Below are positions 5,208 through 63,896 of a DNA stretch of 64,000 bases, piece by piece; within the stretch, counting starts at the first letter, position 1, and every line of letters starts with the position of its first letter. Made by a program: the position numbers and the translations under genes. A model generated the notes under the pieces. It made no database searches. It saw only the letters and a program-made list of their open reading frames with translations, and had not been told where the DNA came from. The DNA lies in NCBI GenBank assembly GCA_023898465.1, contig CP060223.1:96001-160000 (forward strand), in the 5' to 3' direction. This DNA comes from Candidatus Nomurabacteria bacterium (lineage in GTDB: Bacteria; Patescibacteriota; Patescibacteriia; HK-STAS-PATE-3).

Positions 5208-5221
5208 AAGGGAGATTCCTG

Positions 5222-7869: not shown

Positions 7870-7897
7870 TCCGCGACTGCAACGTTCTTTACTTCAA

Positions 7898-7936
7898 CCC
7901 CCGCTATATCTACGGATGTAGCGGGGCTTTCTTTTT
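7898..7936 (+). terminator. Rho-independent terminator (island junction 2)
   Basis: The stem CCCCCGCTA ... TAGCGGGG is followed by CTTTCTTTTT. Confidence 0.8.
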
Positions 7937-7943
7937 ACTATGC

Positions 7944-7972
7944 TTGACAAAATGCCAAAAATAGCATACTAT
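7944..7972 (+). promoter_or_regulatory. Sigma70-like promoter (TTGACA-17-TACTAT)
   Basis: cTTGACAAAATGCC... sits immediately after the terminator. Confidence 0.55.
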
Positions 7973-8046
7973 AGCCGGTTCTTTTTGCACCTCACAATCT
8001 AGTTACACAAGCGAGAGACACTACACATCCCAACCGGGAGGACTAC

Positions 8047-12792: not shown

Positions 12793-12867
12793 TGGCTCCG
12801 GGGACAGGGATCGAACCTGCGACCAAGTGGTTAACAGCCACCTGCTCTACCACTGAGCTACCCCGGA
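12793..12867 (-). tRNA. tRNA-Asn(GTT)
   Basis: Read on the minus strand: TCCGGGGTAGCTCAGTGGTAGAGCAGGTGGCTGTTAACCACTTGGTCGCAGGTTCGATCCCTGTCCCCGGAGCCA. It forms a full cloverleaf with anticodon loop CTGTTAA and an encoded CCA. Confidence 0.95.
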
Positions 12868-24812: not shown

Positions 24813-24902
24813 TGGCGGAGAGGGGGAGATTCGAACTCCCGAAGGGCTTTCACCCTTACTTGCTTTCCAAGCAAGCGCACTAGGCCACTATGCGACCTCT
24901 CC
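24813..24902 (-). tRNA. tRNA-Ser(GGA)
   Basis: Read on the minus strand: GGAGAGGTCGCATAGTGGCCTAGTGCGCTTGCTTGGAAAGCAAGTAAGGGTGAAAGCCCTTCGGGAGTTCGAATCTCCCCCTCTCCGCCA. It has a long variable arm, anticodon loop TTGGAAA and an encoded CCA. Confidence 0.95.
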
Positions 24903-49058: not shown

Positions 49059-50402
49059 TTAGAAGTAGTTGAACGGATTGGTGCGTCGGCCGTTTACCCA
49101 GACTTCGAAGTGCAGGTGGTCGCCAGTACACCAGCCAGTACAACCGGAAATGCCGATAGTTTCGCCCTTGCTCACTGTTTGGCCTACGCTGACATAGGAC
49201 TTGCTTAGGTGAGCATAGAGGGTTTGCAGACCATTACCGTGGTCGATGATGATGTTATTGCCGTAGCCAGTTCCCCAGTTTGTGCGGACAACTCGTCCTC
49301 CATCTGATGCATAAATAGGTGAGGTGCGAGTATGAATATCAATACCGGTGTGACGTGCGCTATAACCCTGGTTAATTTTGTGACTGACCGTAGGCCAGAA
49401 CATTCCAGCACCAACGTTGGTGGCGGAGGCTGGTCGAGGACCACTGCTGACGCTGCTGGCAACTTGAGTGGAACTAACAGTTGTTTTAGGCGCTGGAGGA
49501 GGTTCAATTTTACCGCCCGGAATGATGAGTTGCTGCCCAACTTCAATAGCACTTGCATCAGCCAATTGGTTAAACTCTAGGATATCATCAGCGTTTGCTT
49601 CGTACTTCTTTGCGAGCGATGCAATGGTATCGCCGCTTTGTACTGAGTGGACAACACCGCTGACCGGAGGGATTTTTAATGTTTGACCAGGCTTAATGAC
49701 TGAGGAGTCGTTAAGGTTATTTGCCCAGAGGAGCGTGTTGGTGCTGACAGAAAATTGTGAGGCAATGATACTGATAGTATCGCCACCCTCAACGACATAT
49801 TCACGGACCTGGTCGCGGGGCACTCCTAATTCGCTGGTGCTTGGGATATTTGCCTTGGCTAGCGCTTCACCACTTCCTTCATTTCGGGCGATAGCTAAGA
49901 GCTGACGCTGCTGTTCAGATTCCTCGGTATTTCGATGATAGCGGTCAATTGCTCCGTCGCGGGTGATTGAGCTCAGTGCAGAATTCGGCGCCACCACCGC
50001 GTACTCGACATATTCTTCGTCAGTTTCTTGATTATGCAGAATAGTATTTACTAAAGTGCCACTGGCAAAGTCTTCAATAGCGGCTTCTCGAGCTAATACA
50101 TTATTAGTAAGTACTCCGAAGATTACGACAATAACGACCACGTGAAGCAAATAGCGCGTGGTGATTGGATACCACCATGAGGACTTACTTCCGGCAAGAG
50201 ATTTCTCAAGCCGTTGGGTTACACGTAAATATTGTCGATAGATTGGAACTGCCAATACCATAAAGGTGGCATTCCAAAACCACGCCAGAGGTTTAAAAAT
50301 TCCGTAGATAACAATAAGCACGACCAACTTCCAAAGATAGCGGACGAGATGGTAGACGCCAAAAGCTAATTTGAGTACCTGCGATTTGAGCTGTAAACTC
50401 AC
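49059..50402 (-). CDS. LysM-domain M23 peptidase (murein endopeptidase-like)
   Basis: The start is GTG. An N-terminal TM region is followed by two LysM repeats (YVVEGGDTISIIASQFSV..., HSVQSGDTIASLAKKYEA...). The M23 motifs HTGIDI and GDHLHFEV are present. Confidence 0.9.
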   Translation of the reverse strand: MSLQLKSQVLKLAFGVYHLVRYLWKLVVLIVIYGIFKPLAWFWNATFMVLAVPIYRQYLRVTQRLEKSLAGSKSSWWYPITTRYLLHVVVIVVIFGVLTNNVLAREAAIEDFASGTLVNTILHNQETDEEYVEYAVVAPNSALSSITRDGAIDRYHRNTEESEQQRQLLAIARNEGSGEALAKANIPSTSELGVPRDQVREYVVEGGDTISIIASQFSVSTNTLLWANNLNDSSVIKPGQTLKIPPVSGVVHSVQSGDTIASLAKKYEANADDILEFNQLADASAIEVGQQLIIPGGKIEPPPAPKTTVSSTQVASSVSSGPRPASATNVGAGMFWPTVSHKINQGYSARHTGIDIHTRTSPIYASDGGRVVRTNWGTGYGNNIIIDHGNGLQTLYAHLSKSYVSVGQTVSKGETIGISGCTGWCTGDHLHFEVWVNGRRTNPFNYF

Positions 50403-50613: not shown

Positions 50614-53600
50614 ATGAGTATGAAAAACGTTGTACCGGAAGGGGAATACAACCCAGCAAGTATTGAAGCAAAATGGCAGGAGCACTGGAACAAAAAACCA
50701 GATCAGGCTAAGGATTTTGCGCATGATCCAAAGCGCTATCTTCTCATTGAATTTCCTTACCCCTCAGGTGATGGACTGCATGTGGGGCATGTGCGAAGCT
50801 ATGCCGCTCTCGATGTGTTGGCGCGTTATTCTCGCTTAAAGGGTTTTAATGTGCTTTACCCCATCGGCTGGGATGCTTTTGGTTTACCCACCGAGAATTA
50901 TGCGATTAAGACTGGCGTACACCCACGTGTTGCGACTGATAAGAATATTGCCACCTTTCGCCGCCAGCTTAAGGCGCTAGGCCTTTCATTTGATTGGTCT
51001 CGAGAAGTGGATACAACAGATCCAAAATACTATCGATGGACACAGTGGATTTTTTTGCAGTTCTATAAGGCAGGCTTAGCCTATCAGGCAGAGATTCCTA
51101 TTAACTGGTGTCCAAAAGATAAAATCGGTTTGGCCAATGAAGAAGTGGTTGATGGCAAATGCGAACGCTGCGGCACTGAAGTAACGCGTAAAATGCAAAA
51201 GCAGTGGATGTTAAAAATCACCGCCTATGCAGATCGCTTACTACGTGATCTCGATACAGTTGAGTACGTTGAAAAAATTAAAACACAGCAGAAAAACTGG
51301 ATAGGTAAGAGCGAGGGTGCTGAAATATCTTTTCAAATAGCTAGTAAGGAGTCGCAAAAACCTCGCTTCGTACTTCTCCATGGTTTTCAGGGCTCAGCTA
51401 AAGGTAACTTTTTCCCATGGCTAAAAGATGAGTTGGTCGCAAAGGGCTATGAGGTGGAAGTACCTGAATTACCAAACAGCGCTCATCCGACTGAAGAGGA
51501 ACAGGTAAGTTATGTACTTGAACATTGTCGCTTTGATGAAAACACCATCGTGTTTGGTCATTCGCTTGGTACAGTCGTGGCCATGAAGGTTATAGAAAAG
51601 CTTCCCACAAAAGTAGCTGGCTTGGTTATGGCCGGTGGATTTACCCAGGCTGATTTTTCTGATCACGATCGACCATTCCGCGATACCTTTACATGGAATT
51701 TTGATTTCCAGGCGATTCGAGATAAAGCAGGTTTTATAAAAGTGCTACATGACGTGCATGATGATGCCGTGCCCGAGGGAGCTGGAGAGGCTTTAGCAAA
51801 AGCGCTCGAAGTGCCGTGCTACAAGGTGACCGCAAATGAAGAGCATTTCTGCGCAAAGCAAGAGCCTTATCTATTAGCGCATCTCATGCCAAACACACTT
51901 TTGGTTGGTACGCAAAATCAGGCAAAGGTGGAAATGCTTCGACGAGCATTGGCCCCTTACCCAAATATTCACCTCATCAGTTTAAGTGATATTGGTAAGG
52001 TCGATGATCAGGCTTTAGTAGAGGGCGATGACTTTCGTGCTAATGCAAAAATGAAAGCAGATTTTTATCACCGAGCCACAGGTTTACCAACCATATCGAC
52101 GGATCATATTCTTTGGATAGAGAAATGGCCTGAGGATAATGGCTTCATTACGCATATTCGCAAATTAGCAAATCCGAAATCTGGACGAGCAACAGATGAA
52201 GAACTAGCAGAATGGATAAAAAAATTTATCGATAAAAATGGTGAGTCGCGTACAGCCTTTCATTATGCTATTGGTTATGCCGATGAGAAGGGAGTGCAGG
52301 GCTTTGTGAGTATTCAGCGCGAATACATGTTGAAGGCTAATCCGGCTAAAGCACGATGGGAAGGCTATGCGGTCGGTGCATTTTTGCGTGACCCCGTGAC
52401 TGATGCGTATCGAGAAGAGATGCCCGCAGAGATCGCTTTTGATCGCTTCTTCGCCACAGTGCGCAATGAAATTGTGCCGCAGGTTTTCGATATGAGCACC
52501 TTGACGGTCTTTACCACACGACCCGATACCATCTTCGGTGTCACGTATATGGTTGTAGCCCCTGAACATGAACTCCTTGCCAAGTATCAATCACACATTA
52601 CAAATTGGGATGAAGTTCAAAAGTATGTGCGAGAGGCCGCCAAGAAATCCGATATGGAGCGGACCGAGTTGGCCAAAGAAAAAAGTGGCGTTGAGCTCAA
52701 AGGTATTCAGGCAGTAAATCCGGCAAATGGTGAAGTAATCCCGATTTGGGTAGCTGACTATGTGCTGAGTTCTTATGGCACCGGAGCGATAATGGCTGTG
52801 CCGGCGCATGATCAGCGAGACAATGAGTTTGCAAAAAAGTACTCCCTGCAAATAAGAGAAGTAGTAAGAGGTTTTAATCGTGTAGGAGAGAAAAAAGATA
52901 TTGTATATTCTGGCGAGGGGGTCCTAGTAAATTCTCAGGACTTTGATGGAGAAAAAAGCGAAGACGCAAAAAAGAACATTGTAAGGTGGTTAGAAGAAAA
53001 AGGACTCGGTCATTCAGCAGTCAATTTTAAACTTCGCGACTGGGTATTTTCACGTCAGCACTACTGGGGCGAGCCGATTCCGATTATTCATTGTCCTAAG
53101 TGCGGAGCTGTTCCAGTGCCGGAGAAAGACCTACCAGTGGAATTGCCTCATGTAGAAAAATACCAACCCACTAATACTGGGGCTTCACCATTAGCTGCGA
53201 TCGAGGATTGGGTGCAGGTGAAATGTCCGAAGTGTAAGGGCGAAGCGAGTCGAGAAACCGACACCATGCCGAATTGGGCCGGGAGCTCGTGGTATTTCCT
53301 GCGCTATTCGGATCCGCACAATAGTAAAGCCTTTGCTGATAAGAAAAAGCTAGAGTATTGGCTGCCGGTGGATATTTACAATGGTGGCAATGAGCACACC
53401 ACCCTCCATTTACTCTACTCGCGTTTCTGGCATAAGTTTTTATTTGATCAGGGCTTGGTACCAACTCCAGAACCATACCAGCATCGTCATTCGCATGGGA
53501 TTGTGTTAGCTGAGGATAATCGCAAGATGTCAAAGAGTTGGGGGAACGTGGTCAATCCGGATGATTATGTGCAGGAGTACGGTGCAGATAGCGTGCGCAT

Positions 53601-54198
53601 GTACGAGTTATTTATGGGACCATTTGAGGATATGATTCCGTGGTCAACCAAGGGTATCGTGGGTGTGCATCGCTTCTTAAATCGTGTGTGGGAACTTTAT
53701 CGTAAAGTTACAGAAGAGACGGCCCAAGTAACAGAAGAGAGGGACATTCACAAAGCTGTGAAAAAGGTTGGGGAAGACCTCGAGGCTTTTCGTTTCAACA
53801 CCGCGGTGAGCACTTTGATGGAATATTTTAATCACTTCCGTGATGAAGTGCAGCAGGGTAGGCTCGATAAAGAAGCAGCAGAAAAGTTTCTCGTGATCCT
53901 TTTCCCATTTGCGCCGCACCTTGCCTCAGAGCTCTGGGAGCAGTTAGGAAAGAAGAGCGATATTCGCGAACAATCATGGCCAAACTTTGATCCAAACGCT
54001 TTACAAGCGGAGACCGTCACGATCGGTGTGCAGATTAATGGCAAAGTGCGCGCCTCCATAAGCCTTTCACCAGAAGCAAGCGAAGCAGAAGCGCTGGAGC
54101 TAGCCTTAGCCGAAGAAAATATTCAACGCTATCTTCAAAAGGGACAGCCCAAGAAGGTTATTTATCGTGCAGGAAAAATTCTCAATCTGATCGCCTGA
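50614..54198 (+). CDS. leuS: Leucyl-tRNA synthetase with ~387-aa two-domain insertion before CP1
   Basis: HIGH (HVGH), KMSKS, the Zn-knuckle CPKD...CERCG, the CP1 start TTRPDT and AHDQRDNEFA are all present. At 1194 aa it is far longer than E. coli LeuRS (860 aa). Confidence 0.95.
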   Translation: MSMKNVVPEGEYNPASIEAKWQEHWNKKPDQAKDFAHDPKRYLLIEFPYPSGDGLHVGHVRSYAALDVLARYSRLKGFNVLYPIGWDAFGLPTENYAIKTGVHPRVATDKNIATFRRQLKALGLSFDWSREVDTTDPKYYRWTQWIFLQFYKAGLAYQAEIPINWCPKDKIGLANEEVVDGKCERCGTEVTRKMQKQWMLKITAYADRLLRDLDTVEYVEKIKTQQKNWIGKSEGAEISFQIASKESQKPRFVLLHGFQGSAKGNFFPWLKDELVAKGYEVEVPELPNSAHPTEEEQVSYVLEHCRFDENTIVFGHSLGTVVAMKVIEKLPTKVAGLVMAGGFTQADFSDHDRPFRDTFTWNFDFQAIRDKAGFIKVLHDVHDDAVPEGAGEALAKALEVPCYKVTANEEHFCAKQEPYLLAHLMPNTLLVGTQNQAKVEMLRRALAPYPNIHLISLSDIGKVDDQALVEGDDFRANAKMKADFYHRATGLPTISTDHILWIEKWPEDNGFITHIRKLANPKSGRATDEELAEWIKKFIDKNGESRTAFHYAIGYADEKGVQGFVSIQREYMLKANPAKARWEGYAVGAFLRDPVTDAYREEMPAEIAFDRFFATVRNEIVPQVFDMSTLTVFTTRPDTIFGVTYMVVAPEHELLAKYQSHITNWDEVQKYVREAAKKSDMERTELAKEKSGVELKGIQAVNPANGEVIPIWVADYVLSSYGTGAIMAVPAHDQRDNEFAKKYSLQIREVVRGFNRVGEKKDIVYSGEGVLVNSQDFDGEKSEDAKKNIVRWLEEKGLGHSAVNFKLRDWVFSRQHYWGEPIPIIHCPKCGAVPVPEKDLPVELPHVEKYQPTNTGASPLAAIEDWVQVKCPKCKGEASRETDTMPNWAGSSWYFLRYSDPHNSKAFADKKKLEYWLPVDIYNGGNEHTTLHLLYSRFWHKFLFDQGLVPTPEPYQHRHSHGIVLAEDNRKMSKSWGNVVNPDDYVQEYGADSVRMYELFMGPFEDMIPWSTKGIVGVHRFLNRVWELYRKVTEETAQVTEERDIHKAVKKVGEDLEAFRFNTAVSTLMEYFNHFRDEVQQGRLDKEAAEKFLVILFPFAPHLASELWEQLGKKSDIREQSWPNFDPNALQAETVTIGVQINGKVRASISLSPEASEAEALELALAEENIQRYLQKGQPKKVIYRAGKILNLIA

Positions 54199-55385
54199 TG
54201 TCACATCATTTTCCACATACGCAAAGTTTAGAGTATTCGCTTCGACGAGAAGTGACCGAAATTTATCTCAGCGTGACAATCAAGCACTTTGGCTTGGCGC
54301 TTTTGTCAGTCTTCGAGGTCATTTATCTTTTCGAGTGGTTTGGATCTTCTCTAGCTTTATTGCTCTTATTCTACGGCATGAATTATGTGCTGCACGCGCT
54401 TTTTACTCCTTTTGCTGCCATGCTCGTAAATCGGATTGGCGTGAAAAAGAGTATCCTCCTGGCCAATCCATTTATTATACTGTTTTTCGTTTCATTACTT
54501 TTTCTACCTAGCTGGCCCTGGTTAATTATTCCTGCATTACTCAGTATCGCGATTTATCACGCGATTTTTTGGTTGGCCTTTCACATTGATTTTTCGCGAT
54601 TTGCCAATCCAGAGCACCGAGGTCGGCAGACGAGCATGCTCCTTGCTATACCAATGATTGCGCACGCCATTGGGCCTTTGCTCGGGGGCTTTCTTATTAC
54701 AGAGTTCGGCTTCTCAGTGCTTTTTCTCGTTGTCATTATTTGTTTAGGAGTTTCCGTTCTTCCGCTTTTCTTTTCTCGAGAGGTACATGAGCCATTTCAC
54801 TTACACTGGCGACAGACTTTTCACTACGCTTTTTCTTTTCGTCATTGGCGCCGGAATCTTGTTTTTATAGGCGATGGCATTAGCGGAAAGATTAGCGTTG
54901 TTGTGTGGCCGGTTTTTCTTTTTCTCGCCATTACAAATTTTGTTGACTTAGGTGTTATTAATTCCGTAGCCTTTTTACTCACGCTATTGATGGGTTTATA
55001 TATTGGACATTTGACTGATTCGCCACGTCGCCGAGTGGTTTTGACTCTTGGGGCAATTTTTACTTCCTTTGGCTGGCTTGCCCGAATTTTACTCAAAACA
55101 CCTTGGCAACTTTTTGCCTTTGACGCATATGGTCGGGTTTCTCGCCGGATCATTGATGTACCCTATAATGCACTTTTTTATAAAAGCGCCTATGAACATG
55201 GCGAAAATAAAGCAGCTTTTATTGCTTCCTACGAAATAGTAACAAATCTTTTCGGTGGATTTTTCCTTATTCTCCTCGCGGCATTAGCAAATATGGTGGA
55301 TCCCTTTATTGCCGCTTTTGTTACCGCTGGTATTTTTACGGCCTTTTTCCCAATTATGCCTGACAGTAATAAGAAGGAAAAATAA
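54198..55385 (+). CDS. MFS-like polytopic transporter
   Basis: There are about 11-12 hydrophobic helices. The ATG overlaps the leuS stop (TGATG). Confidence 0.55.
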   Translation: MSHHFPHTQSLEYSLRREVTEIYLSVTIKHFGLALLSVFEVIYLFEWFGSSLALLLLFYGMNYVLHALFTPFAAMLVNRIGVKKSILLANPFIILFFVSLLFLPSWPWLIIPALLSIAIYHAIFWLAFHIDFSRFANPEHRGRQTSMLLAIPMIAHAIGPLLGGFLITEFGFSVLFLVVIICLGVSVLPLFFSREVHEPFHLHWRQTFHYAFSFRHWRRNLVFIGDGISGKISVVVWPVFLFLAITNFVDLGVINSVAFLLTLLMGLYIGHLTDSPRRRVVLTLGAIFTSFGWLARILLKTPWQLFAFDAYGRVSRRIIDVPYNALFYKSAYEHGENKAAFIASYEIVTNLFGGFFLILLAALANMVDPFIAAFVTAGIFTAFFPIMPDSNKKEK

Positions 55386-55999
55386 TGCGACGCTTGCTAA
55401 TCCATGACCCAGAAGCATTATCTACTGCTGTTCGTGCGCTCAAAAACGGACAACTTATTATCTATCCTACTGACACTGCCTATGCTATTGGCGCAGATGC
55501 GACAAATGCGGCGGCTGTCCGGGCAGTCCAACAAGTGAAACAGCGTAGCGAGGCAAAACCACTTCCATTAATTGCTGCTGATAGTGCCCAAGTTGCTCAG
55601 GTGGCTATTTTACACCCTGATGAAGAGCTGCTGGCGAAGAAACATTGGCCCGGTCCGCTCAGCCTCTTACTTGACCGGAAAGGTGGATTACCAGAAGAAG
55701 TCACGTTAGGCCTGCCAAAAGTAGCCATTCGAGTACCACATATGCCGTTTGCTCGTGAGTTAGCCTTGCGACTCGGTCATCCAGTTGTGGCAACTTCAGC
55801 AAATATGGCTGGCATGGGCCCAAAGTATGATCCTGATGAGGTGCTGCATGAGCTAGTAAATAATAACCACAGCCCGGTCGTACTGATAGACGGAGGAGTA
55901 TTAGCAGAAGTACCGCCCTCAACCATTGCGGAGTGCCATAACGGAGAAGTGAAGATACATCGTCAGGGGCCAATTGTGATCCCGGGCGCCACAATATGA
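55385..55999 (+). CDS. tsaC: L-threonylcarbamoyladenylate synthase (YrdC/Sua5 domain)
   Basis: IIYPTDTAYAIGADA and ATSAN are YrdC-domain motifs. The protein is 204 aa. Confidence 0.85.
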   Translation: MRRLLIHDPEALSTAVRALKNGQLIIYPTDTAYAIGADATNAAAVRAVQQVKQRSEAKPLPLIAADSAQVAQVAILHPDEELLAKKHWPGPLSLLLDRKGGLPEEVTLGLPKVAIRVPHMPFARELALRLGHPVVATSANMAGMGPKYDPDEVLHELVNNNHSPVVLIDGGVLAEVPPSTIAECHNGEVKIHRQGPIVIPGATI

Positions 56000-56823
56000 G
56001 CGTGTATTCGCCAACTCAGTTGCAAGCCCTTTGCCGTCAATTTGGCATACGGCCTCAGCGACGTCGCGGGCAAAACTTTGTTATTGATCAACATTTGATT
56101 GATCGTATGCTGCAAGCGGCTGAAATAGACTCCGAGCATCCGATATTAGAAATTGGGCCGGGTTTTGGCGTTTTAACAGAAGCATTAGTGCAAAAAGCGT
56201 CTCAGGTAATAGCAATTGAACTAGAAAAAAAGCTAGCTGAACATTTGCAAAAGCGTTTTTCTTCCCAAAAAAATTTGACCATAGTGCAGAATGATTTTCG
56301 TTTTACTGATCTTGCTGCGCTGGGTCTCCAAGAGGCGGCATATGATGTAGTGGCTAATTTGCCGTATCAAATAACCTCCTTAGTTATTCGGCGTTTATGT
56401 AGCACGCATCCTCGTCCACGTCGTATCACCCTGCTCGTGCAAAAAGAAGTAGCTGAAAGGATTATTGCGCCATCAGGAGAGGCAAGCACGTTAAGTATTG
56501 CGGTGGCTTTTTATGCTCAGGCAAAGCTGGTCAGAACCGTTTCTCCGGCAGCTTTTTGGCCGCGGCCTCAGGTGAAATCAGCTATTCTGCGTCTTGATTT
56601 GCATAGTACCATTCCAAATGTTGACGAAAAACGCTTTTTCTCCATTGTGCGTTCGGCCTTTCAAGGTAAGCGCAAAAAATTGCGCAATTCACTTGCTTCA
56701 GTACTCGGAGTTGAACCAATAAAAGTCGAGGAAATATTGAGAAAACAGGGTATAAATCCAGAAGTACGAGCTCAAGATCTCTCACTTGAGAACTGGTTGA
56801 CAATCGCACAAGAAAAGCTTTGA
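55996..56823 (+). CDS. rsmA: 16S rRNA (adenine1518/1519-N6)-dimethyltransferase
   Basis: RRGQNFV, the SAM motif EIGPGFGVLT, and ANLPYQITS are present. Confidence 0.9.
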   Translation: MSVYSPTQLQALCRQFGIRPQRRRGQNFVIDQHLIDRMLQAAEIDSEHPILEIGPGFGVLTEALVQKASQVIAIELEKKLAEHLQKRFSSQKNLTIVQNDFRFTDLAALGLQEAAYDVVANLPYQITSLVIRRLCSTHPRPRRITLLVQKEVAERIIAPSGEASTLSIAVAFYAQAKLVRTVSPAAFWPRPQVKSAILRLDLHSTIPNVDEKRFFSIVRSAFQGKRKKLRNSLASVLGVEPIKVEEILRKQGINPEVRAQDLSLENWLTIAQEKL

Positions 56824-56886: not shown

Positions 56887-57759
56887 TTGGCTTTTCAGGG
56901 GGAACAACCAGGGGAGAATGACAATACAAAGCTTTTCAATAATGCCCCAGAGCAAGGTAATCAGGTTCCGCCTGAGCAAAGTGGCTCGCGGGGCTTTTTT
57001 ATTGCGTTAATTTCCTTTGGCGCAGTTGGGCTTTTGCTCGGAATTGTGAGCTTGGCAAAGAATATTCAGTCACCTTTTGTACCAAATGCCAACCTCATTG
57101 CGGTGCAGCAGGACACCAATCAAGAAAACATCTCTGATTTGCAGCAAAGAGACACGGATGGAGATGGGTTAAGTGATTACGAAGAACTTTATCAATACAA
57201 CACTAGCCCGTATTTAGCTGATTCTGACTCGGATACCATTGATGATAAGAAAGAAATCGAGAGTGGAAACGATCCGAATTGTCCAAGTGGCCAGGATTGT
57301 ACCGGATTAGGCGTAAATACAAACACGAGTACAGTTGACGATGCATTGGGGCTTACTAATAGCTCCACCAATACATCCGCGACAAATACCAGTACGAGCA
57401 CGAGTGCGGTTGATATGGCACAGTTGCGTGAAGTGTTAAAGGCCTCGGGTGCTCCTGCCTACGTCGTGGATTCAACCGATGATGCTACTTTGCTTGAGCT
57501 TTACAACGAATTAGTAGCTGAGCAGGGTGGTGACTCGCTTGATACCAACTCGACAGATACAAATGCGAGTAACACGTCGACTGTTGATGACGCTACCACC
57601 TTACAACTTCTGCAAAGCTTATCAGCCAGCGAGATACGCGCACTTCTCATTCAAAGTGGCGTTGATCAATCATTAATCGATCAAGTAGACGATTCTGAGC
57701 TGCAGCAAATATTCCTTGATGCAGTGCAATCCGAGTTTTCCTCTGACTCCTCATCATGA
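56887..57759 (+). CDS. Membrane-anchored protein with thrombospondin-type-3-like Ca-binding repeats and S/T/N-rich tail
   Basis: The start is TTG (uncertain). The TM segment is FFIALISFGAVGLLLGIVSL. DTDGDGLSDYEE and DSDSDTIDDKKE are TSP3-like aspartate repeats. Confidence 0.6.
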   Translation: MAFQGEQPGENDNTKLFNNAPEQGNQVPPEQSGSRGFFIALISFGAVGLLLGIVSLAKNIQSPFVPNANLIAVQQDTNQENISDLQQRDTDGDGLSDYEELYQYNTSPYLADSDSDTIDDKKEIESGNDPNCPSGQDCTGLGVNTNTSTVDDALGLTNSSTNTSATNTSTSTSAVDMAQLREVLKASGAPAYVVDSTDDATLLELYNELVAEQGGDSLDTNSTDTNASNTSTVDDATTLQLLQSLSASEIRALLIQSGVDQSLIDQVDDSELQQIFLDAVQSEFSSDSSS

Positions 57760-60700
57760 TTCTGCCTTCTGAGCAATCAAAGAAGAAAAAGAGCGTGCGA
57801 GCAATCGCTAGTTTTCTGTTGCCAATGGTTTTACTGGTGACAGTGTTGGGAGTTGCCTTACCACGAGAAAGCAAAGCTCAAATTGGCGCAGTTGGCAGTT
57901 TGGCGGGATTTATTTGGAAGGAAGTAAAAGATTCAGCCCGTTATATTGCCACGCAGGCAAAAGCTGCTTTTGAAAAAGCTCAGGATACCAGTTACGCCAT
58001 TGCGTTTAAGAATAGCTTACGAGTTTTCTTAGGTAAGGTGGCAGAAGATACCGCCGTGTGGGTTTCCAGTGCCGGGACGGGCCAAAAGCCGCTCTTCATC
58101 ACTGATCCGCATTATTGGCGAAATTTGACCGATGCGGCTGGCGGCGACTTTTTGGATTCTATTTCCAAAGATGTTTTTGGAGTAAGTCTGTGTGAGCCGC
58201 TCGATGTGCAAAAGAAGGTTCAACTAGAAATTGCCACCCGCAATCTTATCAATCCTTTAAACGTGTGTGAGAACAGTTGTAACACGACATACAACAATAC
58301 AGCCGAGCAGCTAGGGAACATGAAATCGTATCTTGATCTTCAAGAACGTAAATCACAAGCAAGTCCGAATGCGCTTACCTATTGTCCTGATGAAGAGTTT
58401 CTGCTTGGCATTAGCACTCCAGACAATCCGAATGATCCCTCAACCTATGGCACACAGATGTCAGAGCTTGAGTGTTTTCAACTCATCTCAAACAACTACA
58501 ATCGTCGAAGGCAGCAGGCGACTTCAGAATTGACCTCATGTTTGCAAGATTGTAATCGCGGATCTCGTAAGTCATCCTGTACCGCAACCGCAGTATGGGG
58601 AAACATTCGAGACATTCAGGATTTCTCAGTAGAATTTCAAACTTACTTTAAGCCTGAGCAAAATGATATTGGTCAGATTCTTACCCTTTTCGGCTTGACT
58701 CAGCAAGCAGAAGAAGAGGCGAAGATTGCCGAAGAGACAATTCAGAATAGTAAGTTAGGCGCGGTAACTTCAACGCTTCGTACAGACATCCTTACCCCGG
58801 CCAGCTTGGTAGAAGAAAAAGCAGCCCAGCCTATTCGAGAGTCTTCAACAATTGATACTACGCAAACCGGATCCTTACTCGCTGATGTGGGTAATATTTT
58901 TGCGAACACCTTAACGCAGCGTTTAATGGAGAGATTCTTCCGCAGTAAGTGTGGATTAAATCCAAGCGCATGCGAGGGCCCAGGCCAAACAGACTCCAAA
59001 CTCGGCTCCTTACTCTTTAGCACACGGACTCCAAGCGGTCTGGCAGCTGCGCGACTCCAGTTCGCCAGCTTAGCTCGAATCGATTACACAACAGGAGATC
59101 CAGGTCGTTCACAAATAGCAGTATCAAATCAATTAGAAGCGCAAGGTATAATTAATTCCGGTTTCCGACAGGCTATTGATGAGCACATGACAGTGCGAGA
59201 AGCGTTGAACGCCGGCTTGCTAAATGCCAGCGCAACCTTTGGCTACGACGAAACAGACAATGAAGCGGAAAATGGAATTCCATACCGCTCCATCCTTTAT
59301 CTGCGTAAATATCGAGTCGTCCCTGTTGGCTGGGAGTTGGCCGCTGTGTATATCGGTTCAGATGCAGATAGACAGTCACATGGCTTAGGCGAACTCGTCG
59401 ACCTCTATGATTGGTGTGGACAGGACGCTGCACATGGTTTACCAAATCCAGATGATCCAGAGACACCATTGCCTTCACCATTCTGCGGATTGGTTGACCC
59501 GAGTTGGGTATTAAAAGCTCCTGACACGTACTGTCGACGTCAGGGCGCTGGTGATGAAATTATCCAACGTCGCTATGTGTGTGACACTGATACCAATGGC
59601 GATGGTCGAATTAATTGTAGCCTGAGCGATTTGGGTGGAGGGGATATTGGCTCCTGGATTATTTCACGAAATCAAGATACCTGCGTTGATGAGCCTAGCT
59701 GTGTGGCCGAAGATAGTGATGGGAATTGTCTCGCCTATGGATATTGCTATGAAGAAAAGCCGATTTGGCGTTTCGGCGGTGAAACCTGTAACGGGTACTA
59801 TGCTTCTTGTCGATCTTATACAAATTCAAGTGGCATTCAACTCGCTTACTTAAAAGATACCCTTGATGAGGGCGATTGTAATCCAGAGAATGCCGGTTGT
59901 CGCGCGTACTGCAGCGATGGCGAATACAATGCCGTAAATCAGACCTGGAGTTGTCGCTCTGATTCAGGTGATACTATATACTTTGATCGGGACGCGAGCT
60001 CATGTCCAGATGGTGCGGTTGGATGTACTGAATTAATTCGCACCGAAGCTGGATCAAACGTTTTAGCAAACGCTGGATTTGAATACTATACAGGTACCAG
60101 CGATGACGGCACTCGAGATACTTTTGGCTTCTGCAGTAATAATGGCGCTGCCTGTCAAACCAATGGAGACTGTGGACTCGGGGCAAGTTGTGAAGGTTGG
60201 AAAACTGATAACGGTGCCGTCCAACTACAAGCAGTCAGCGATGATGTGAGTGGCGTTGGTTCACCAGACACCATTGCAGTGCAAATGAGCGCCGGGGTTG
60301 GCAAGCTCATTCACGAAGCTGATGCCTATCAAGATTTGAGCGGCATGCAGATGACTTTCTCATACTACGCAAAAGCGCTTGGAGCAAGTTGTAGCGGCAC
60401 CTTTGGCGTACAAAGCGCTGATGCAATTTATGTGCCAGCCGCTGATGAAGAGGGTAGCGCTGAGTACACCGATCTCTGGCAGCAATATGCTGGAGTCTTC
60501 ACCTTCCCAGAATCAGCTTATACTAAGAGTAAGGTGCAGGCGTACATAAATAATCCGGGCTGCGGTATTTTGGTTGACTCAGCTAAATTAGAATTTAGTG
60601 CTGCGCAAACAGTGTACTCGGATTATCAGACGGTGAATGAAATTTCCATGCAAGTTCCACAGACCACTCTGCTGTCCAACGGAGACTTCAGCTTAGATGA

Positions 60701-63700
60701 TGGAACTGACTTCTTTAGCTACCCAGCCCCAGTTGATGGAGATAACTCTACCGCAGATGACAATATTCCAGACGGCTGGACACCACGAGCAGTAGGAAGT
60801 ATCGCAATTGATCGCACGCAAGGCCACTTTGATGATGAATCACTTCGGATTGACGCTAGTGGAGTGCGTAGCTATGCGGGCCAGCTTGTTCCAGTTGAAC
60901 AAGGTAAAACCTATGAAGTGAGCGGTTGGGTAAAGAGTCAATTGACTCCAAGTGGTGGTGATACTCCATTTGGCGCACTCATGACCGAATGTGTGTACAG
61001 TGCCAGCCATCCAAATGCTTACGAAACATTTAATCCTTCGGCTGATGAGCCAAGCGAGTGTCTCTTGTCTAACTTCGAAACCTACATTCGTCCTTCAGTT
61101 GAAGACGGTAACAATTATTATGTAACAACTGGGACGAGCGACTGGACTTATCTCCGCTATACCGTGACCGCAAATAATCCTGATATCGGCTTTATGCGAG
61201 TTGCTTGTACAAATGTGTCTCAGGATACAGGAGGCATTCAAGCTGATGGTTCTGGTACGGTTTGGTGTGATGATGTGAAGGTGGTGGAAACTCCACTAAG
61301 TTGTGACCGCGAAGAAGTTGGTTGTCAAAAATATCGACCAGTTGGGGCTGGTGATGCCGTAAATGGCGTAGTGCGTTCCAGCGACATTTGTCCGCTTGAT
61401 CAGGTTGGTTGCCGCCAATTCCGTGAAATGCCGATTGAACATGTGCCTCAGCGTGATGGCATTGATCCAGTCTACATTATTGAAAGTTCGGGAAACCAAT
61501 GTACAGCTGCCAGTGTGGGTTGTGAGGAATACACTAACCTTGACCTGGGTGAGTCAGGCGGAGAAGCCTTAGCGTACTTCTCACAAATTAAACAGTGTGT
61601 GAAGCCGACAGATCCAAACGCAGGTAACTTCTATACTTGGGAAGGTAGCGAACAAGCTGGTTATAACCTTCGTGCATACAAACTTCTCACGAGTAATGTT
61701 GATCAAGGTCCATGTACAAATCTTTCGGTCGGTACAACTACCAGCGATCCAATCTGTGAAGACGATAGCAATCCAATCGCTGAGTGTAGTGTGGATGACC
61801 TAGGCGTGAACCCTGATTGTACTGAATACTTTAACGATTCCGGCGAAGTCTTTTATCGCTTGAAGAGTCGAACAGTCACCGTCTCCAATGATTGTCACCC
61901 ATTCCGTAATTCAATTGACGCAGCTGCAGGTGAGGATAGTGTGTATCACGTGATTCCGAGCGAAGCAGTCACTTGTTCCGCCGCTGCAGCTGGTTGTCGT
62001 CAGTACAAGGGAACAACTGCAGATAGTAGCCGTACCGTCTACAATGAGAATTTTGAAAACGGCTCGGTGAACGGTTGGAGTGGGGGCGTGACCTATTCAA
62101 ATGAGTCAGTTAACTTAGGCGGTCACTCCATGCGCACGAGCGACGACACTCTTTTCTCAATCGATCTCTCAAACACCATTACTAACGGCCGAACCTACAG
62201 TATTCAGTTCTCCTATAAGGCTCGGCAGACCGGTGACCTAGCCTTTCAAATTCGCGATGAGCTAGGCGAGAGCTTTGGCAGCACGGTAGCTATTCGGCCG
62301 GGTGAAGAATGGGCGCAGTATGAGCTCGGACCAGTCTTTGTGAATTCAACCGGCGACCCGACCGAGTTTATCTTAGAATTTACCACTCCTTCAAGCCTAC
62401 CAGGCGGGTGGATCGATAATATTAAATTACGCGAATCAGTTGACAGTATTTATCGTATCAAGGGTACGACCTCGTCCTGTGATCCAGCAAATGCCGGATG
62501 TCGCCTCTATGTTGATAGCGCAAATAGCCCGGTGGCAGTTACCTCATTTAGTCATCTCTGCTCTGATCGGGCAGTCGGCTGTGAGGCAATGACAGTGACG
62601 CAAAATTCAGATTATCCTTTTGTGCAGGATGTACAAGATAATCCTGATAAGTTTATTCAAGGTGATCTGACTCTCGCGTATGTAAACTCCTCAAGCGCTT
62701 ATTGTCGGGCAGAGTACCAGGGCTGTACTGAGTATGGCGTTGCTTCCTATGATCAAAATAATGAAGTACTTGCATGGTCAAGCACGAATTTGATTAATGA
62801 TCCAGACACTTATCCGGTAGCACTTTGTCATCCGAGTCAGAATCGCTGTGAAGAGTACACCGAGAGTATTAGTGGCAGTAAGGCCTATTTCCGCGATCCA
62901 GGCAATCAAACCTGTGAATATCGTGAATCAGCTGCCTATGCTGGATTATTAGTAGACGGTTGGTTTATCACGGGCACAAATGAGCCATGTCCATCACAGT
63001 CGTTGACTTGCTTCGGCGGCACTCTGGCTGGTGAACCGTGTATGACGTCGGATCAGCAGCAAGCTTGTCTAAACAATAATGGCTACTGTATCGCCTATCC
63101 ATTAGACGGAGAAGTGAAAGAGGTAAATCTTATCTGTGGTTCAACCTGTTCAACTGGTGGATCAGTTGGTCAGGCTTGTGTGAATAATGGTCAATGCTCG
63201 AATGTGTGTGTAGGCGGCACGAATGCTGGTGCATCTTGTCTACGCAATGATGATTGTGGTGGAGGTGGTACCTGTGAGATAGGGCAGTGCGGTGATGGTG
63301 GTGTGCGGCCTTTCTGTGATGGTCGTCAAACCGGATCAACTCGACAAGATCAGGAAAATTGTTTGGCTGATGATGGGCTCTGTACGGCCATTCCTCAGGT
63401 AGGTCAGCCAGGGCGAACCTGTCAGGGTGGTCCAAACGACGGCCTGTCTTGTGCCAATGATGCATACTGTTCCAGTGTTTGTGCTGGTGGTACAAATGCT
63501 GATAACGCTTGCTTTAACGATAGCGATTGTCCAGGGAGTACCTGTGGCGTGGAAGCGAGTTGTGCAAATTACTGGGTTGGCACCTGCGAGCCGGCCGCTG
63601 CGGGATGTACGGAATTCCGTGACCCTCTTGATCCGCCGCAACAAGGAGCCTATCCAAATGGTTGTCAGGTGAATTGTACGCTGGCCACTGACCGTAATGA

Positions 63701-63896
63701 TAATCTCATTGAGGTAGATGCTGAGTGTCGACCTGGCTCAACAGCAGCGTCACAACCTGGCTGTCAGCCTTACTACATCTTGCGGCAAAGTATTACTTCG
63801 CAAGTTTCCGAATGTAATTCAACTATTGATTTCACTACCGGGTGTCAGCCATTCTATGACACCGCTAATCCAAATGCTAATTTTATAGGGGGTTAA
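57756..63896 (+). CDS. Giant (2046 aa) Cys-rich surface protein with three CBM/jelly-roll-like modules
   Basis: The ATG overlaps the upstream stop (ATGA). The N-terminal TM segment is AIASFLLPMVLLVTVLGVAL. There are at least 12 copies of a GC-x-x-[YF] motif. The jelly-roll-like modules lie at about 60055-60600, 60669-61292 and 62040-62440. A duplicated C-terminal Cys module lies at about 63195-63275 and 63468-63546. Confidence 0.85.
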   Translation: MILPSEQSKKKKSVRAIASFLLPMVLLVTVLGVALPRESKAQIGAVGSLAGFIWKEVKDSARYIATQAKAAFEKAQDTSYAIAFKNSLRVFLGKVAEDTAVWVSSAGTGQKPLFITDPHYWRNLTDAAGGDFLDSISKDVFGVSLCEPLDVQKKVQLEIATRNLINPLNVCENSCNTTYNNTAEQLGNMKSYLDLQERKSQASPNALTYCPDEEFLLGISTPDNPNDPSTYGTQMSELECFQLISNNYNRRRQQATSELTSCLQDCNRGSRKSSCTATAVWGNIRDIQDFSVEFQTYFKPEQNDIGQILTLFGLTQQAEEEAKIAEETIQNSKLGAVTSTLRTDILTPASLVEEKAAQPIRESSTIDTTQTGSLLADVGNIFANTLTQRLMERFFRSKCGLNPSACEGPGQTDSKLGSLLFSTRTPSGLAAARLQFASLARIDYTTGDPGRSQIAVSNQLEAQGIINSGFRQAIDEHMTVREALNAGLLNASATFGYDETDNEAENGIPYRSILYLRKYRVVPVGWELAAVYIGSDADRQSHGLGELVDLYDWCGQDAAHGLPNPDDPETPLPSPFCGLVDPSWVLKAPDTYCRRQGAGDEIIQRRYVCDTDTNGDGRINCSLSDLGGGDIGSWIISRNQDTCVDEPSCVAEDSDGNCLAYGYCYEEKPIWRFGGETCNGYYASCRSYTNSSGIQLAYLKDTLDEGDCNPENAGCRAYCSDGEYNAVNQTWSCRSDSGDTIYFDRDASSCPDGAVGCTELIRTEAGSNVLANAGFEYYTGTSDDGTRDTFGFCSNNGAACQTNGDCGLGASCEGWKTDNGAVQLQAVSDDVSGVGSPDTIAVQMSAGVGKLIHEADAYQDLSGMQMTFSYYAKALGASCSGTFGVQSADAIYVPAADEEGSAEYTDLWQQYAGVFTFPESAYTKSKVQAYINNPGCGILVDSAKLEFSAAQTVYSDYQTVNEISMQVPQTTLLSNGDFSLDDGTDFFSYPAPVDGDNSTADDNIPDGWTPRAVGSIAIDRTQGHFDDESLRIDASGVRSYAGQLVPVEQGKTYEVSGWVKSQLTPSGGDTPFGALMTECVYSASHPNAYETFNPSADEPSECLLSNFETYIRPSVEDGNNYYVTTGTSDWTYLRYTVTANNPDIGFMRVACTNVSQDTGGIQADGSGTVWCDDVKVVETPLSCDREEVGCQKYRPVGAGDAVNGVVRSSDICPLDQVGCRQFREMPIEHVPQRDGIDPVYIIESSGNQCTAASVGCEEYTNLDLGESGGEALAYFSQIKQCVKPTDPNAGNFYTWEGSEQAGYNLRAYKLLTSNVDQGPCTNLSVGTTTSDPICEDDSNPIAECSVDDLGVNPDCTEYFNDSGEVFYRLKSRTVTVSNDCHPFRNSIDAAAGEDSVYHVIPSEAVTCSAAAAGCRQYKGTTADSSRTVYNENFENGSVNGWSGGVTYSNESVNLGGHSMRTSDDTLFSIDLSNTITNGRTYSIQFSYKARQTGDLAFQIRDELGESFGSTVAIRPGEEWAQYELGPVFVNSTGDPTEFILEFTTPSSLPGGWIDNIKLRESVDSIYRIKGTTSSCDPANAGCRLYVDSANSPVAVTSFSHLCSDRAVGCEAMTVTQNSDYPFVQDVQDNPDKFIQGDLTLAYVNSSSAYCRAEYQGCTEYGVASYDQNNEVLAWSSTNLINDPDTYPVALCHPSQNRCEEYTESISGSKAYFRDPGNQTCEYRESAAYAGLLVDGWFITGTNEPCPSQSLTCFGGTLAGEPCMTSDQQQACLNNNGYCIAYPLDGEVKEVNLICGSTCSTGGSVGQACVNNGQCSNVCVGGTNAGASCLRNDDCGGGGTCEIGQCGDGGVRPFCDGRQTGSTRQDQENCLADDGLCTAIPQVGQPGRTCQGGPNDGLSCANDAYCSSVCAGGTNADNACFNDSDCPGSTCGVEASCANYWVGTCEPAAAGCTEFRDPLDPPQQGAYPNGCQVNCTLATDRNDNLIEVDAECRPGSTAASQPGCQPYYILRQSITSQVSECNSTIDFTTGCQPFYDTANPNANFIGG

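Follow-up and report, generated by a model that had tools for sequence, protein, structure and literature searches.

A serine hydrolase and a Ham1-like domain nested at the entrance to the CP1 editing domain of a patescibacterial leucyl-tRNA synthetase

The leuS gene described here, from Candidatus Nomurabacteria, a very small and uncultivated bacterium, encodes a complete bacterial-type leucyl-tRNA synthetase (LeuRS), recognized by profile and motifs, that carries a cassette of two enzyme domains. The insertion is genuine and selectively maintained, and the cassette forms part of a broader set of LeuRS-linked domains in Patescibacteria. Few proteins are as well catalogued as the aminoacyl-tRNA synthetases, and here one of them has taken up entire enzymes that look functional, just ahead of its editing domain. 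The most likely reading is that the two domains are accessory hydrolases that act together with LeuRS on small molecules of an aminoacyl or nucleotide type, with a chemistry that we infer. We put the probability that the two domains are functionally coupled to LeuRS in some form at roughly 60%.

LeuRS is complete on both sides of the insert

Within the window (the whole stretch of DNA analysed, 64,000 nucleotides), the complete leuS ORF lies at 50614..54198 on the forward strand, as do all of the features located below, and encodes 1194 residues including the insert. This assignment draws on the ORF list, an AlphaFold model and the leuS_bact profile TIGR00396, which scores 1014.3 bits against a cut-off of 548.4 and matches in two stretches split by the insert. 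As had been claimed from the sequence, the synthetase is intact on either side. The HIGH signature (HVGH, aa 56-59; 50779..50790) and the KMSKS signature (aa 971-975; 53524..53538) are kept, as is the CP1 editing domain (aa 628-810; 52495..53043; PF13603, 205 bits) with its FTTRPDT (aa 633; 52510-52530) and PAHDQRD (aa 730; 52801-52821) motifs. Because the CP1 motifs are intact, the cassette would add to editing and not replace CP1.

The insert comprises 387 in-frame residues (aa 241-627; 51334..52494) between ...NWIGKSEGAEISF and TLTVFTTRPDT, and the limits originally given for it are exact. The LeuRS flank on its 5' side ends ...SEGAEISF; the insert itself starts with QIASK and ends with ...FDMS before TLTV, without a His-Asn pair. 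It is located on the strand that leads from the LeuRS catalytic core into CP1. LeuRS minus the insert aligns contiguously to the Thermus thermophilus and Escherichia coli enzymes, which have 6-7 residues at this point; in loci L012 and L015 the corresponding linker is 6-9 residues long. The AlphaFold model of the full-length protein (ma9bdedc55de1) has a mean pLDDT of 91.2 and superimposes on solved bacterial LeuRS structures with a target-normalized TM-score (TMt) of ∼0.8, leaving ∼390 residues unmatched. The protein thus shares with bacterial-type LeuRS (T.thermophilus 2bte/1h3n, E.coli 4aq7) the catalytic core with HIGH and KMSKS, CP1 with its T-rich and AHDxRD motifs, and the anticodon-binding and C-terminal domains. 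It differs in that ∼390 extra residues form two folded enzyme domains where the solved structures have only a linker.

The chance that this architecture is an artefact, whether a misassembly, a frameshift fusion, an intein or another mobile element, is negligible. One ORF spans the whole region, base composition does not shift at either junction, and the full-length model is confident. The same junctions are found in independent assemblies (loci L017 and L018) and in many representative proteins; misassembly is ruled out by these independent loci together with the even base composition. A search of the insert with Hint/intein profiles gave no match, there is no junction pattern of Cys/Ser/Thr...His-Asn, and no direct or inverted repeats beyond chance-sized matches flank the insert, which rules out an intein or mobile element and agrees with the earlier statement that intein junction residues are lacking. 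We also considered a split LeuRS starting at the hydrolase, where many database proteins begin, and rejected it because L017 and L018 are each one continuous ORF.

The first half of the insert is a YdeN/RBBP9-type serine hydrolase

The first half of the insert had been read as a YdeN/RBBP9-type serine hydrolase with a nucleophile elbow, an acid and a histidine, and this assignment is well supported. The predicted alpha/beta hydrolase domain spans aa 247-425 (51352..51888), with limits set by hmmsearch and by the secondary structure of the model. It scores 32.6 bits against PF06821 (Ser_hydrolase) when the insert is searched alone and 31.5 bits in the full protein, above the gathering score of 22, and matches Bacillus subtilis YdeN (1uxo) with an E-value of 8e-16 and human RBBP9 with an E-value of 4e-7. 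In the AlphaFold model, residues 251-424 have pLDDT values >90 and alternate between strand and helix. The nucleophile, Ser317 (51562..51564), lies in a GHSLG elbow, is a serine in 117 of the 119 aligned domain copies, and belongs to the FGHSLG stretch at 51553-51570, just where the original prediction had placed it. The triad is completed by Asp383 in VHDDAVP (51760..51762; Asp in 97/119 copies and Glu in 11/119) and His411 in NEEHF (51844..51846; His in 116/119). All three residues align with those of YdeN and follow the order of the PF06821 family. Like YdeN (1uxo) and RBBP9 (2qs9, 7oex), the domain appears to be a minimal alpha/beta hydrolase of ∼180 residues, and it has the GHSxG elbow and the Ser-Asp-His triad; unlike them, it is nested inside another enzyme.

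RBBP9, the only characterized member of the PF06821 family that we found, acts as an aminopeptidase on hydrophobic and aromatic residues (PMC8866121), and chemistry of this type requires a free alpha-amine on a hydrophobic aminoacyl group (PMC8866121). In the alignment, from which this correspondence is read off, the alpha-amine anchor Glu108 of RBBP9 falls on Arg353 of the LeuRS hydrolase, so that specificity may differ. One could imagine from the RBBP9 activity that the hydrolase supplies substrate, clipping Leu, or another hydrophobic residue, from the N-terminus of scavenged peptides beside the synthetase of an amino acid auxotroph, while the second domain cleans the local ATP pool. Patescibacteria lack most biosynthetic pathways, which would fit such a role, as would the presence of the hydrolase in ValRS and AlaRS (see below). 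We nevertheless consider it very unlikely, because it leaves unexplained both the occurrence of the hydrolase in UvrA, SecA and TsaD and the association with NUDIX and Ham1-like domains, and because leucine diffuses freely, which would give tethering little obvious value.

The second half is a Ham1-like domain of a LeuRS-associated clade

The second domain (aa 426-627; 51889..52494) has a complete Ham1/ITPase fold and belongs to a LeuRS-associated subfamily. Colinearity with Ham1 had been proposed for this half of the insert and is upheld by PF01725, albeit as a marginal pass: the insert alone scores 27.4 bits against a gathering score of 22.5 over profile positions 2-124 of 186, and the family is not listed when the whole 1194-residue protein is scanned. 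The phosphate-binding motif TxNxxK (T433-Q434-N435-Q436-A437-K438; 51910..51927) has its T, N and K invariant in 47/47 clade members. Gln434 occurs in the window's LeuRS only, the other 46 of the 47 having Arg at this position. The acidic DDSGL-type motif reads STDHIL, as had been noticed: the first residue of the pair is Thr496, and the second Asp of the canonical (D/E)D motif is retained as Asp497 (52102..52104), which corresponds in the alignment to the D of DDGG and NDSG in canonical relatives. In all, of the residues expected to bind triphosphate and metal (TxNxxK, Glu, ENAxxK and the acidic pair), the domain keeps T433, N435, K438, E470, N477, K481 and D497, each invariant across the clade (47/47), and has a clade-specific block consisting of W-x-E-K-W-P and H-x-R.

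Comparison with the Ham1/RdgB/ITPA non-canonical purine NTP pyrophosphatases (1vp2, 4bnq, 1v7r, 2i5d) brings out further differences. Thr replaces the first acidic residue of (D/E)D; the (S/N)HR base-recognition motif, present in the aligned canonical relatives, is absent throughout the LeuRS-associated clade; and nearly every clade member seen sits inside or beside leuS. Scores against the NCBIfam RdgB equivalogs are 19-31 bits, far below cut-offs of 145-272, so that the RdgB/ITPA equivalogs are not reached (TIGR00042, 19.3 bits versus 145.35; NF011397, 30.9 bits versus 234). Given these scores and the lack of (S/N)HR, the domain is not to be filed as an ITP/XTP pyrophosphatase.

A domain of this kind might instead act as a regulatory sensor that binds nucleotide without turnover, as does the HAM-like KomB of the Kongming defence system, and modulates CP1 movement or LeuRS activity with the hydrolase as a structural or regulatory partner. 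The similarity of the Ham1-like domain to KomB is at the level of the fold only. We regard a sensor as highly improbable, since working enzymes would be expected to show just the near-invariance seen in the hydrolase triad and in the catalytic residues that remain, and the free-standing versions described below argue for self-contained activities.

The cassette is conserved in a related genome

A related, independent genome carries the cassette at an identical position in the syntenic locus (L017), again within one ORF. Amino acid identity between the window and L017 is 56% for the hydrolase, 65% for the Ham1-like domain, 63% for CP1 and 61% for the C-terminal part of LeuRS; the corresponding dN values are 0.42, 0.25, 0.25 and 0.32, with dS saturated. 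By this pairwise comparison, the cassette appears as conserved as CP1, which points to purifying selection.

Distribution across Patescibacteria

We surveyed the distribution of the two domains by an exhaustive HMMER search and a metagenome scan, word-indexed homologue searches being insensitive (2, 23 and 34 matches). The hydrolase and/or the Ham1-like domain is found in dozens of 50%-identity clusters of Patescibacteria LeuRS and at several sites. In other Patescibacteria, the domains are inserted singly, in reverse order, beyond CP1 or within CP1, and the pair occurs in five different arrangements. Among metagenomic relatives of the Ham1-like domain, 30 of 34 lie inside a LeuRS ORF. The original prediction of a LeuRS with extra domains was right about the architecture, but the window's protein is not a one-off.

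Both domains also exist as separate genes upstream of leuS, and sister genomes show the two states, separate gene and inserted domain. Two free hydrolases (P0008, P0173) end 5-7 nt before a leuS gene of 808-809 codons, and three free Ham1-like genes (P0154, P0159, P0024) are directly upstream of leuS. A free hydrolase+Ham1-like fusion (P0004) precedes, by 40 nt, a leuS that lacks the insert; in its N-terminal part, the product of this leuS is 78% identical to the window's LeuRS. The Ham1-like domain of P0004 groups as sister to those of the window and L017. Across the Ham1-like clade, there have been at least three switches between the separate upstream gene and the inserted state. Not every free copy adjoins leuS: one Ham1-like gene (L021) and several distant hydrolases (P0177, P0179 and L001) do not, the last of these, from Uhrbacteria, being the only locus obtained from the contig scan.

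The hydrolase is not exclusive to LeuRS, a second point on which the scope of the original prediction needs correcting. It is also embedded in ValRS, AlaRS, UvrA, SecA and TsaD and fused to Adk, which argues for a host-independent function or an insertion-tolerant domain. A LeuRS that carries one of the two domains usually lacks the other, so they may occur together by coincidence. Further guests occur in related LeuRS: NUDIX, HAD and GNAT domains are found at similar sites, an IS200-like Y1 transposase domain is also among them, and in one protein (P0073) a GNAT domain stands beside the hydrolase.

These observations bear on the possibility that LeuRS is a carrier only. The guests would then be independent house-cleaning enzymes, unrelated to leucylation, that in very small genomes became co-transcribed with an essential, constitutive gene and were later nested at a permissive surface linker of its product. 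The range of other hosts of the hydrolase, the generic small-enzyme look of the LeuRS guests (NUDIX, HAD, Ham1-like, GNAT and the Y1 transposase) and the free hydrolases away from leuS are all in keeping with such piggy-backing. On the other hand, the Ham1-like clade has stayed with LeuRS almost without exception over at least three switches between separate gene and insert, and no simple read-through fusions to the LeuRS N-terminus were seen in the survey despite the adjacent genes; the domains are found repeatedly around CP1. We therefore treat piggy-backing as a serious alternative, although an unlikely one.

Proposed function

Functional coupling to LeuRS is supported by the conserved catalytic residues, by purifying selection, by fusion to leuS and the leuS gene neighbourhood, and by the census; that other LeuRS guests are small-molecule hydrolases or transferases (NUDIX, HAD, GNAT) also supports it. 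The two domains would be independently folding accessory hydrolases, either tethered to LeuRS or encoded beside it. By analogy with RBBP9, the serine hydrolase may release a hydrophobic aminoacyl group with a free amine from a leaving group to which it is joined as an ester, anhydride or amide. LeuRS has Leu, Ile and Met as its cognate and near-cognate amino acids. Candidate substrates are aminoacyl-adenylates that are mis-activated or have escaped, and aminoacyl esters, among them the ends of mischarged tRNAs. A nucleoside polyphosphate-type by-product or contaminant other than ITP or XTP would be bound, and probably cleaved, by the Ham1-like domain; any connection between a domain of the ITPase fold and a product of the LeuRS reaction is a matter of conjecture. 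Together, the domains would provide extra clean-up at the synthetase on top of an intact CP1. The specific chemistry is proposed tentatively, with odds somewhat below even. Extra proofreading and nucleotide sanitation, both suggested when the insert was first noticed, are plausible but hypothetical roles.

The cassette might also protect LeuRS from inhibitors. MccE and MccF are microcin C immunity enzymes, and agrocin 84 is a LeuRS inhibitor; the LeuRS-TM84 structure is among the fold matches of the LeuRS model. The guests could provide on-board immunity by detoxifying antibiotics that mimic aminoacyl-adenylates and target LeuRS (aminoacyl-sulfamoyl or phosphoramidate nucleosides of the microcin C or agrocin 84 type), with the hydrolase cleaving the aminoacyl moiety as MccF does, GNAT domains acetylating as MccE does, and Ham1-like, NUDIX and HAD domains destroying the nucleotide part. 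Such a function would suit the patchy, fast-shuffling distribution with variable combinations of exactly these enzyme classes, the free-amine requirement of RBBP9-type chemistry and the existence of an NCBI-curated IleRS with a GNAT domain (NF040702). We judge it quite unlikely. The case for it is circumstantial throughout, neither a toxin nor a producer context was seen, and the hydrolase does not belong to the MccF (S66) family. Neither domain matched a family among the PADLOC defence models at E ≤ 0.01, a result on which we rejected membership of a known defence system.

A broader and more speculative proposal, which we also think unlikely, is that the LeuRS of Patescibacteria is a scaffold for exchangeable guests (the YdeN-type hydrolase, the LeuRS-specific Ham1-like clade, NUDIX, HAD and GNAT) carried in cis around the CP1 hinge or in trans from an upstream gene. 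Together, these would make up an unrecognized layer of synthetase quality control or self-protection. Examples would be a third editing site, of the serine-hydrolase type, that acts on aminoacyl-adenylates or aminoacyl-tRNA, or immunity to antibiotics that mimic aminoacyl-adenylates; the nucleotide hydrolases would dispose of the nucleotide moiety.

Should the guests work on substrates or inhibitors of LeuRS, they would represent a new way of achieving translational fidelity or antibiotic tolerance, in a bacterial radiation that is very large and poorly understood, and would give the orphan YdeN family and the LeuRS-specific Ham1 clade their first cellular context. If they are only passengers, they offer a clean natural example of reduced genomes nesting enzymes inside essential genes, and they identify permissive insertion sites in LeuRS for engineering.

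Relation to known synthetases and editing factors

The original prediction that no LeuRS with this two-domain insert had been described holds for the literature searched, in which we found no account of a LeuRS joined to hydrolase and Ham1-like domains. The 2024 AARS Online domain catalogue contains no hydrolase, Ham1 or NUDIX module. The IleRS with an N-acetyltransferase domain (NCBIfam NF040702, ileS_w_GNAT) is a curated class Ia synthetase that likewise has an extra small-molecule enzyme domain, but host, guest and position all differ, and the window's LeuRS has no GNAT domain. With CP1 and the trans-editing factors AlaX, YbaK and DTD, the cassette shares the idea of a hydrolytic module in or beside the synthetase that clears wrong products, and it exists both in cis, as an insert, and in trans, encoded by an upstream gene. 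It differs from them in having no relationship to them in sequence or fold, and we know of no aminoacyl-tRNA synthetase editing factor that uses serine-hydrolase chemistry. In public gene calls, some LeuRS proteins of this architecture are truncated, an internal Met where the hydrolase begins being taken as their start.

An insert of two enzyme-like domains ahead of an intact editing domain

The leuS gene of the window is an uninterrupted ORF (50614..54198, + strand) encoding a bacterial-type leucyl-tRNA synthetase (LeuRS) of 1194 aa. The protein scores 1014 bits against TIGR00396 (cut-off 548), with the match divided into two stretches, and contains the Pfam class I catalytic, editing (PF13603, 205 bits) and anticodon-binding domains. 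The original prediction of an in-frame insert at 51334-52494 (+ strand), with the synthetase signatures retained around it, is exact: these positions correspond to aa 241-627, and when they are removed the flanks align unbroken to the T. thermophilus and E. coli enzymes. HVGH (aa 56) represents the HIGH signature, KMSKS begins at aa 971, and the editing domain (CP1), with FTTRPDT at aa 633 and PAHDQRD at aa 730, is intact. The linker between ...EI(L/T)F and ...V(F/Y)TTRPDT is indeed short in E. coli, where the original prediction put it at about 10 residues: there and in T. thermophilus it comprises just 6-7 residues. The LeuRS of the window has 387 aa at this pre-CP1 site. GC content is level across both junctions and no meaningful flanking repeats were found around the insert. 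A model of the full-length LeuRS (mean pLDDT 91.2, pTM 0.74; insert blocks 88-98) superposes on solved LeuRS structures with a target-normalised TM-score of ~0.8, leaving ~390 residues unmatched, and none of the solved structures has such an insert.

The insert comprises two folded domains whose catalytic residues are conserved. As proposed, the first (aa ~247-425) is a YdeN/RBBP9-family serine hydrolase, matching PF06821 at 32.6 bits (gathering score 22), B. subtilis YdeN (1uxo) at E 8e-16 across 160 residues, and human RBBP9 at E 4e-7. Its triad is conserved in 119 aligned related copies: Ser317 (GHSLG) is retained in 117 and His411 in 116, while position 383 is Asp in 97, as in the window, and Glu in a further 11. 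The second domain (aa ~426-627) passes Pfam Ham1p_like narrowly (27.4 bits vs 22.5), and does so only in a scan of the insert by itself. The counterparts of the phosphate/metal-binding residues of canonical relatives are conserved, with T433, N435, K438, N477, K481 and D497 invariant in all 47 distinct clade members and E470 in 46. Unlike canonical Ham1 enzymes, the domain has Thr at the leading position of its acidic pair, an alteration already recognised in the original prediction, and lacks the C-terminal (S/N)HR motif; its scores against RdgB equivalog models are far under cut-off. Together these features indicate a Ham1-fold domain whose phosphate site is probably working, but which should not be labelled an ITP/XTP pyrophosphatase. 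Within the phosphate-binding motif G-T-R-N-x-A-K, the window has Gln434 (51913-51915) in place of the Arg found in 46 of 47 relatives.

Conservation in a related genome

A related genome, L017 (GCA_030699685.1), has a LeuRS in which the hydrolase and Ham1-like domains lie at the same site in a single continuous ORF, ruling out an artefact. With synonymous sites saturated in this comparison, identity to the window and nonsynonymous divergence (dN) are 79% and 0.16 for the N-terminal part, 56% and 0.42 for the hydrolase, 65% and 0.25 for the Ham1-like domain, 63% and 0.25 for CP1, and 61% and 0.32 for the C-terminal part. The guest domains are therefore under constraint roughly equal to that on the domains of the synthetase itself, and the insert is under purifying selection.

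Gene order is also shared. In the window, a LysM/M23 peptidase gene (49059-50402, - strand) precedes leuS, which is followed by genes for an MFS-like membrane protein (54198-55385), YrdC/Sua5 (55385-55999) and RsmA (55996-56823) and by a very large ORF of 2046 aa (57756-63896); L017 shares this order, apart from having a second MFS gene after YrdC and before RsmA. The window's YrdC-like protein is identical to USN53669.1, from a Candidatus Nomurabacteria MAG. The only Rfam matches within the window are two tRNA genes, 12796-12867 (-) and 24816-24902 (-). The LeuRS ORFs of L017 (4251-8015) and of another related locus, L018 (4167-7694), are recorded as 5001-8015 and 5001-7694; these starts are internal Met codons at the start of the hydrolase, and the first 240-280 catalytic-core residues are lost.

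Free forms of the guest domains beside leuS

The free hydrolases closest to that of the window (P0008 and P0173, ~50% identity) end 5-7 nt ahead of an ordinary leuS of 808-809 aa, and one of these loci further resembles the window in having YrdC and MFS genes downstream. Free Ham1-like genes (P0154, P0159 and P0024) each lie directly upstream of leuS; at locus L012, which has this arrangement, the LeuRS is insert-less. The gene for a free two-domain protein, P0004, lies 40 nt ahead of an insert-less leuS; the product of this leuS is 78% identical to the window's LeuRS in its N-terminal part. In a rough neighbour-joining tree the Ham1-like domain of P0004 is sister to those of the window and L017. 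Because free leuS-adjacent forms are both basal in this tree and nested among inserted ones, it implies at least three switches between separate upstream gene and inserted domain. The cassette domains are linked to leuS by both fusion and gene neighbourhood. There are counter-examples: in Saccharibacteria and Uhrbacteria, free hydrolases that are more distant do not adjoin leuS, nor does one free Ham1-like gene (L021). At L021 (393-758 and 770-1408 for the two genes), the Ham1-like gene adjoins one whose product, from reading its translation, we take to resemble archaeal initiation factor aIF-1A, so the Ham1-like clade may reach beyond Patescibacteria.

Distribution of guest domains

Searching 1.84 billion representatives exhaustively with HMMER yielded 1695 matches at E <= 1e-3, the best 150 of which were classified against parts of the window LeuRS. 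Among these 150, ~39 LeuRS proteins have the hydrolase pre-CP1, at the site used in the window, ~12 have it directly after CP1 (past ...WGEPIPII, ahead of the Zn ribbon) and several have the Ham1-like domain alone; P0004 is the one free two-domain protein. Further guests in related LeuRS include NUDIX, GNAT, HAD and even IS200-like Y1 transposase domains. NUDIX is nested inside CP1 or ahead of the hydrolase in many (L018, L005 5639-9154, P0009, P0010, P0021, P0046, P0056), and L018 (3479-4150 and 4167-7694) also has a separate NUDIX gene directly upstream of leuS. A GNAT domain precedes the hydrolase in P0073 (aa 306-394), and P0019 contains a HAD-like hydrolase in its C-terminal half (aa 428-583). 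The transposase domain (PF01797, 52.8 bits) occurs in frame at the pre-CP1 site of P0084 (998 aa; aa 269-374), which also bears the hydrolase after CP1, and might hint at how guests arrive there.

Metagenomes scanned for members of the Ham1-like clade yielded 34 loci, 30 of them within a LeuRS ORF, either pre-CP1 or, in a monophyletic group, ~25 residues further upstream; of the other four, one is the free hydrolase+Ham1-like gene and three are free or unassigned in position. The pair occurs in five arrangements: hydrolase then Ham1-like, pre-CP1 (seen in only two genomes, those of the window and L017); the reverse order, pre-CP1 (L037, L038); Ham1-like pre-CP1 with the hydrolase post-CP1 (L023, L033, L039) or within CP1 (L019); and a free hydrolase+Ham1-like protein (L015).

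The literature searched and the AARS Online domain catalogue contain no description of this architecture, and in public records such proteins carry no more specific name than leucine-tRNA ligase or class I tRNA ligase family protein. The original prediction of an undescribed architecture holds to that extent, but the window's LeuRS is not a one-off: synthetases with accessory domains are a known kind, the nearest curated precedent being the NCBI model of IleRS with a GNAT guest, and guest-bearing LeuRS is common in Patescibacteria sequence data yet undescribed.

Proposed role of the cassette

We infer that both domains work with LeuRS, and consider functional coupling of some kind reasonably probable. 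RBBP9, the sole characterised member found for the hydrolase family, captures single hydrophobic amino acids (Leu/Ile, Met, Phe, Tyr, Trp) in acyl-enzyme intermediates and requires a free alpha-amine; its authors conclude that it cleaves such residues from amide, ester or thioester linkages (PMC8866121). Hydrolysis of an aminoacyl-adenylate would call for this chemistry, as would that of an aminoacyl ester (a mischarged tRNA end, for example) or of an aminoacyl-nucleotide analogue. LeuRS deals, correctly or in error, with Leu, Ile and Met. The recurrent nucleotide hydrolases (Ham1-like, NUDIX) suggest a nucleotide-linked substrate or by-product. By analogy with RBBP9, and given this overlap and recurring company, we tentatively favor a clean-up module acting at the synthetase through aminoacyl-cleaving chemistry (probability roughly 0.4).

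The main rival, in which a reduced genome uses LeuRS as a mere carrier for house-cleaning enzymes that act independently, draws support from the hydrolase being housed elsewhere too: it is nested in ValRS, AlaRS, UvrA, SecA and TsaD, and adenylate kinase bears it as a C-terminal fusion (P0041, P0063, P0086, P0033, P0074, P0118). Every one of these non-LeuRS hosts binds ATP or an adenylate. We regard this rival as less likely than the clean-up module. Lesser alternatives are immunity to antibiotics that mimic adenylates, an aminopeptidase that supplies amino acids, and the sensing of nucleotides.

A subgroup of Ham1-like-bearing LeuRS (L025, L026, L029, L032, L033, L034) has a divergent CP1, 30-36% identical to the window's and without the threonine-rich TTRxDT, and canonical editing may be altered in it. 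L006 (4669-7775), on a contig of 372 kb, has a LeuRS with the hydrolase that is fragmented over different reading frames as three or four ORFs, representing either a pseudogene or uncorrected sequencing frameshifts.
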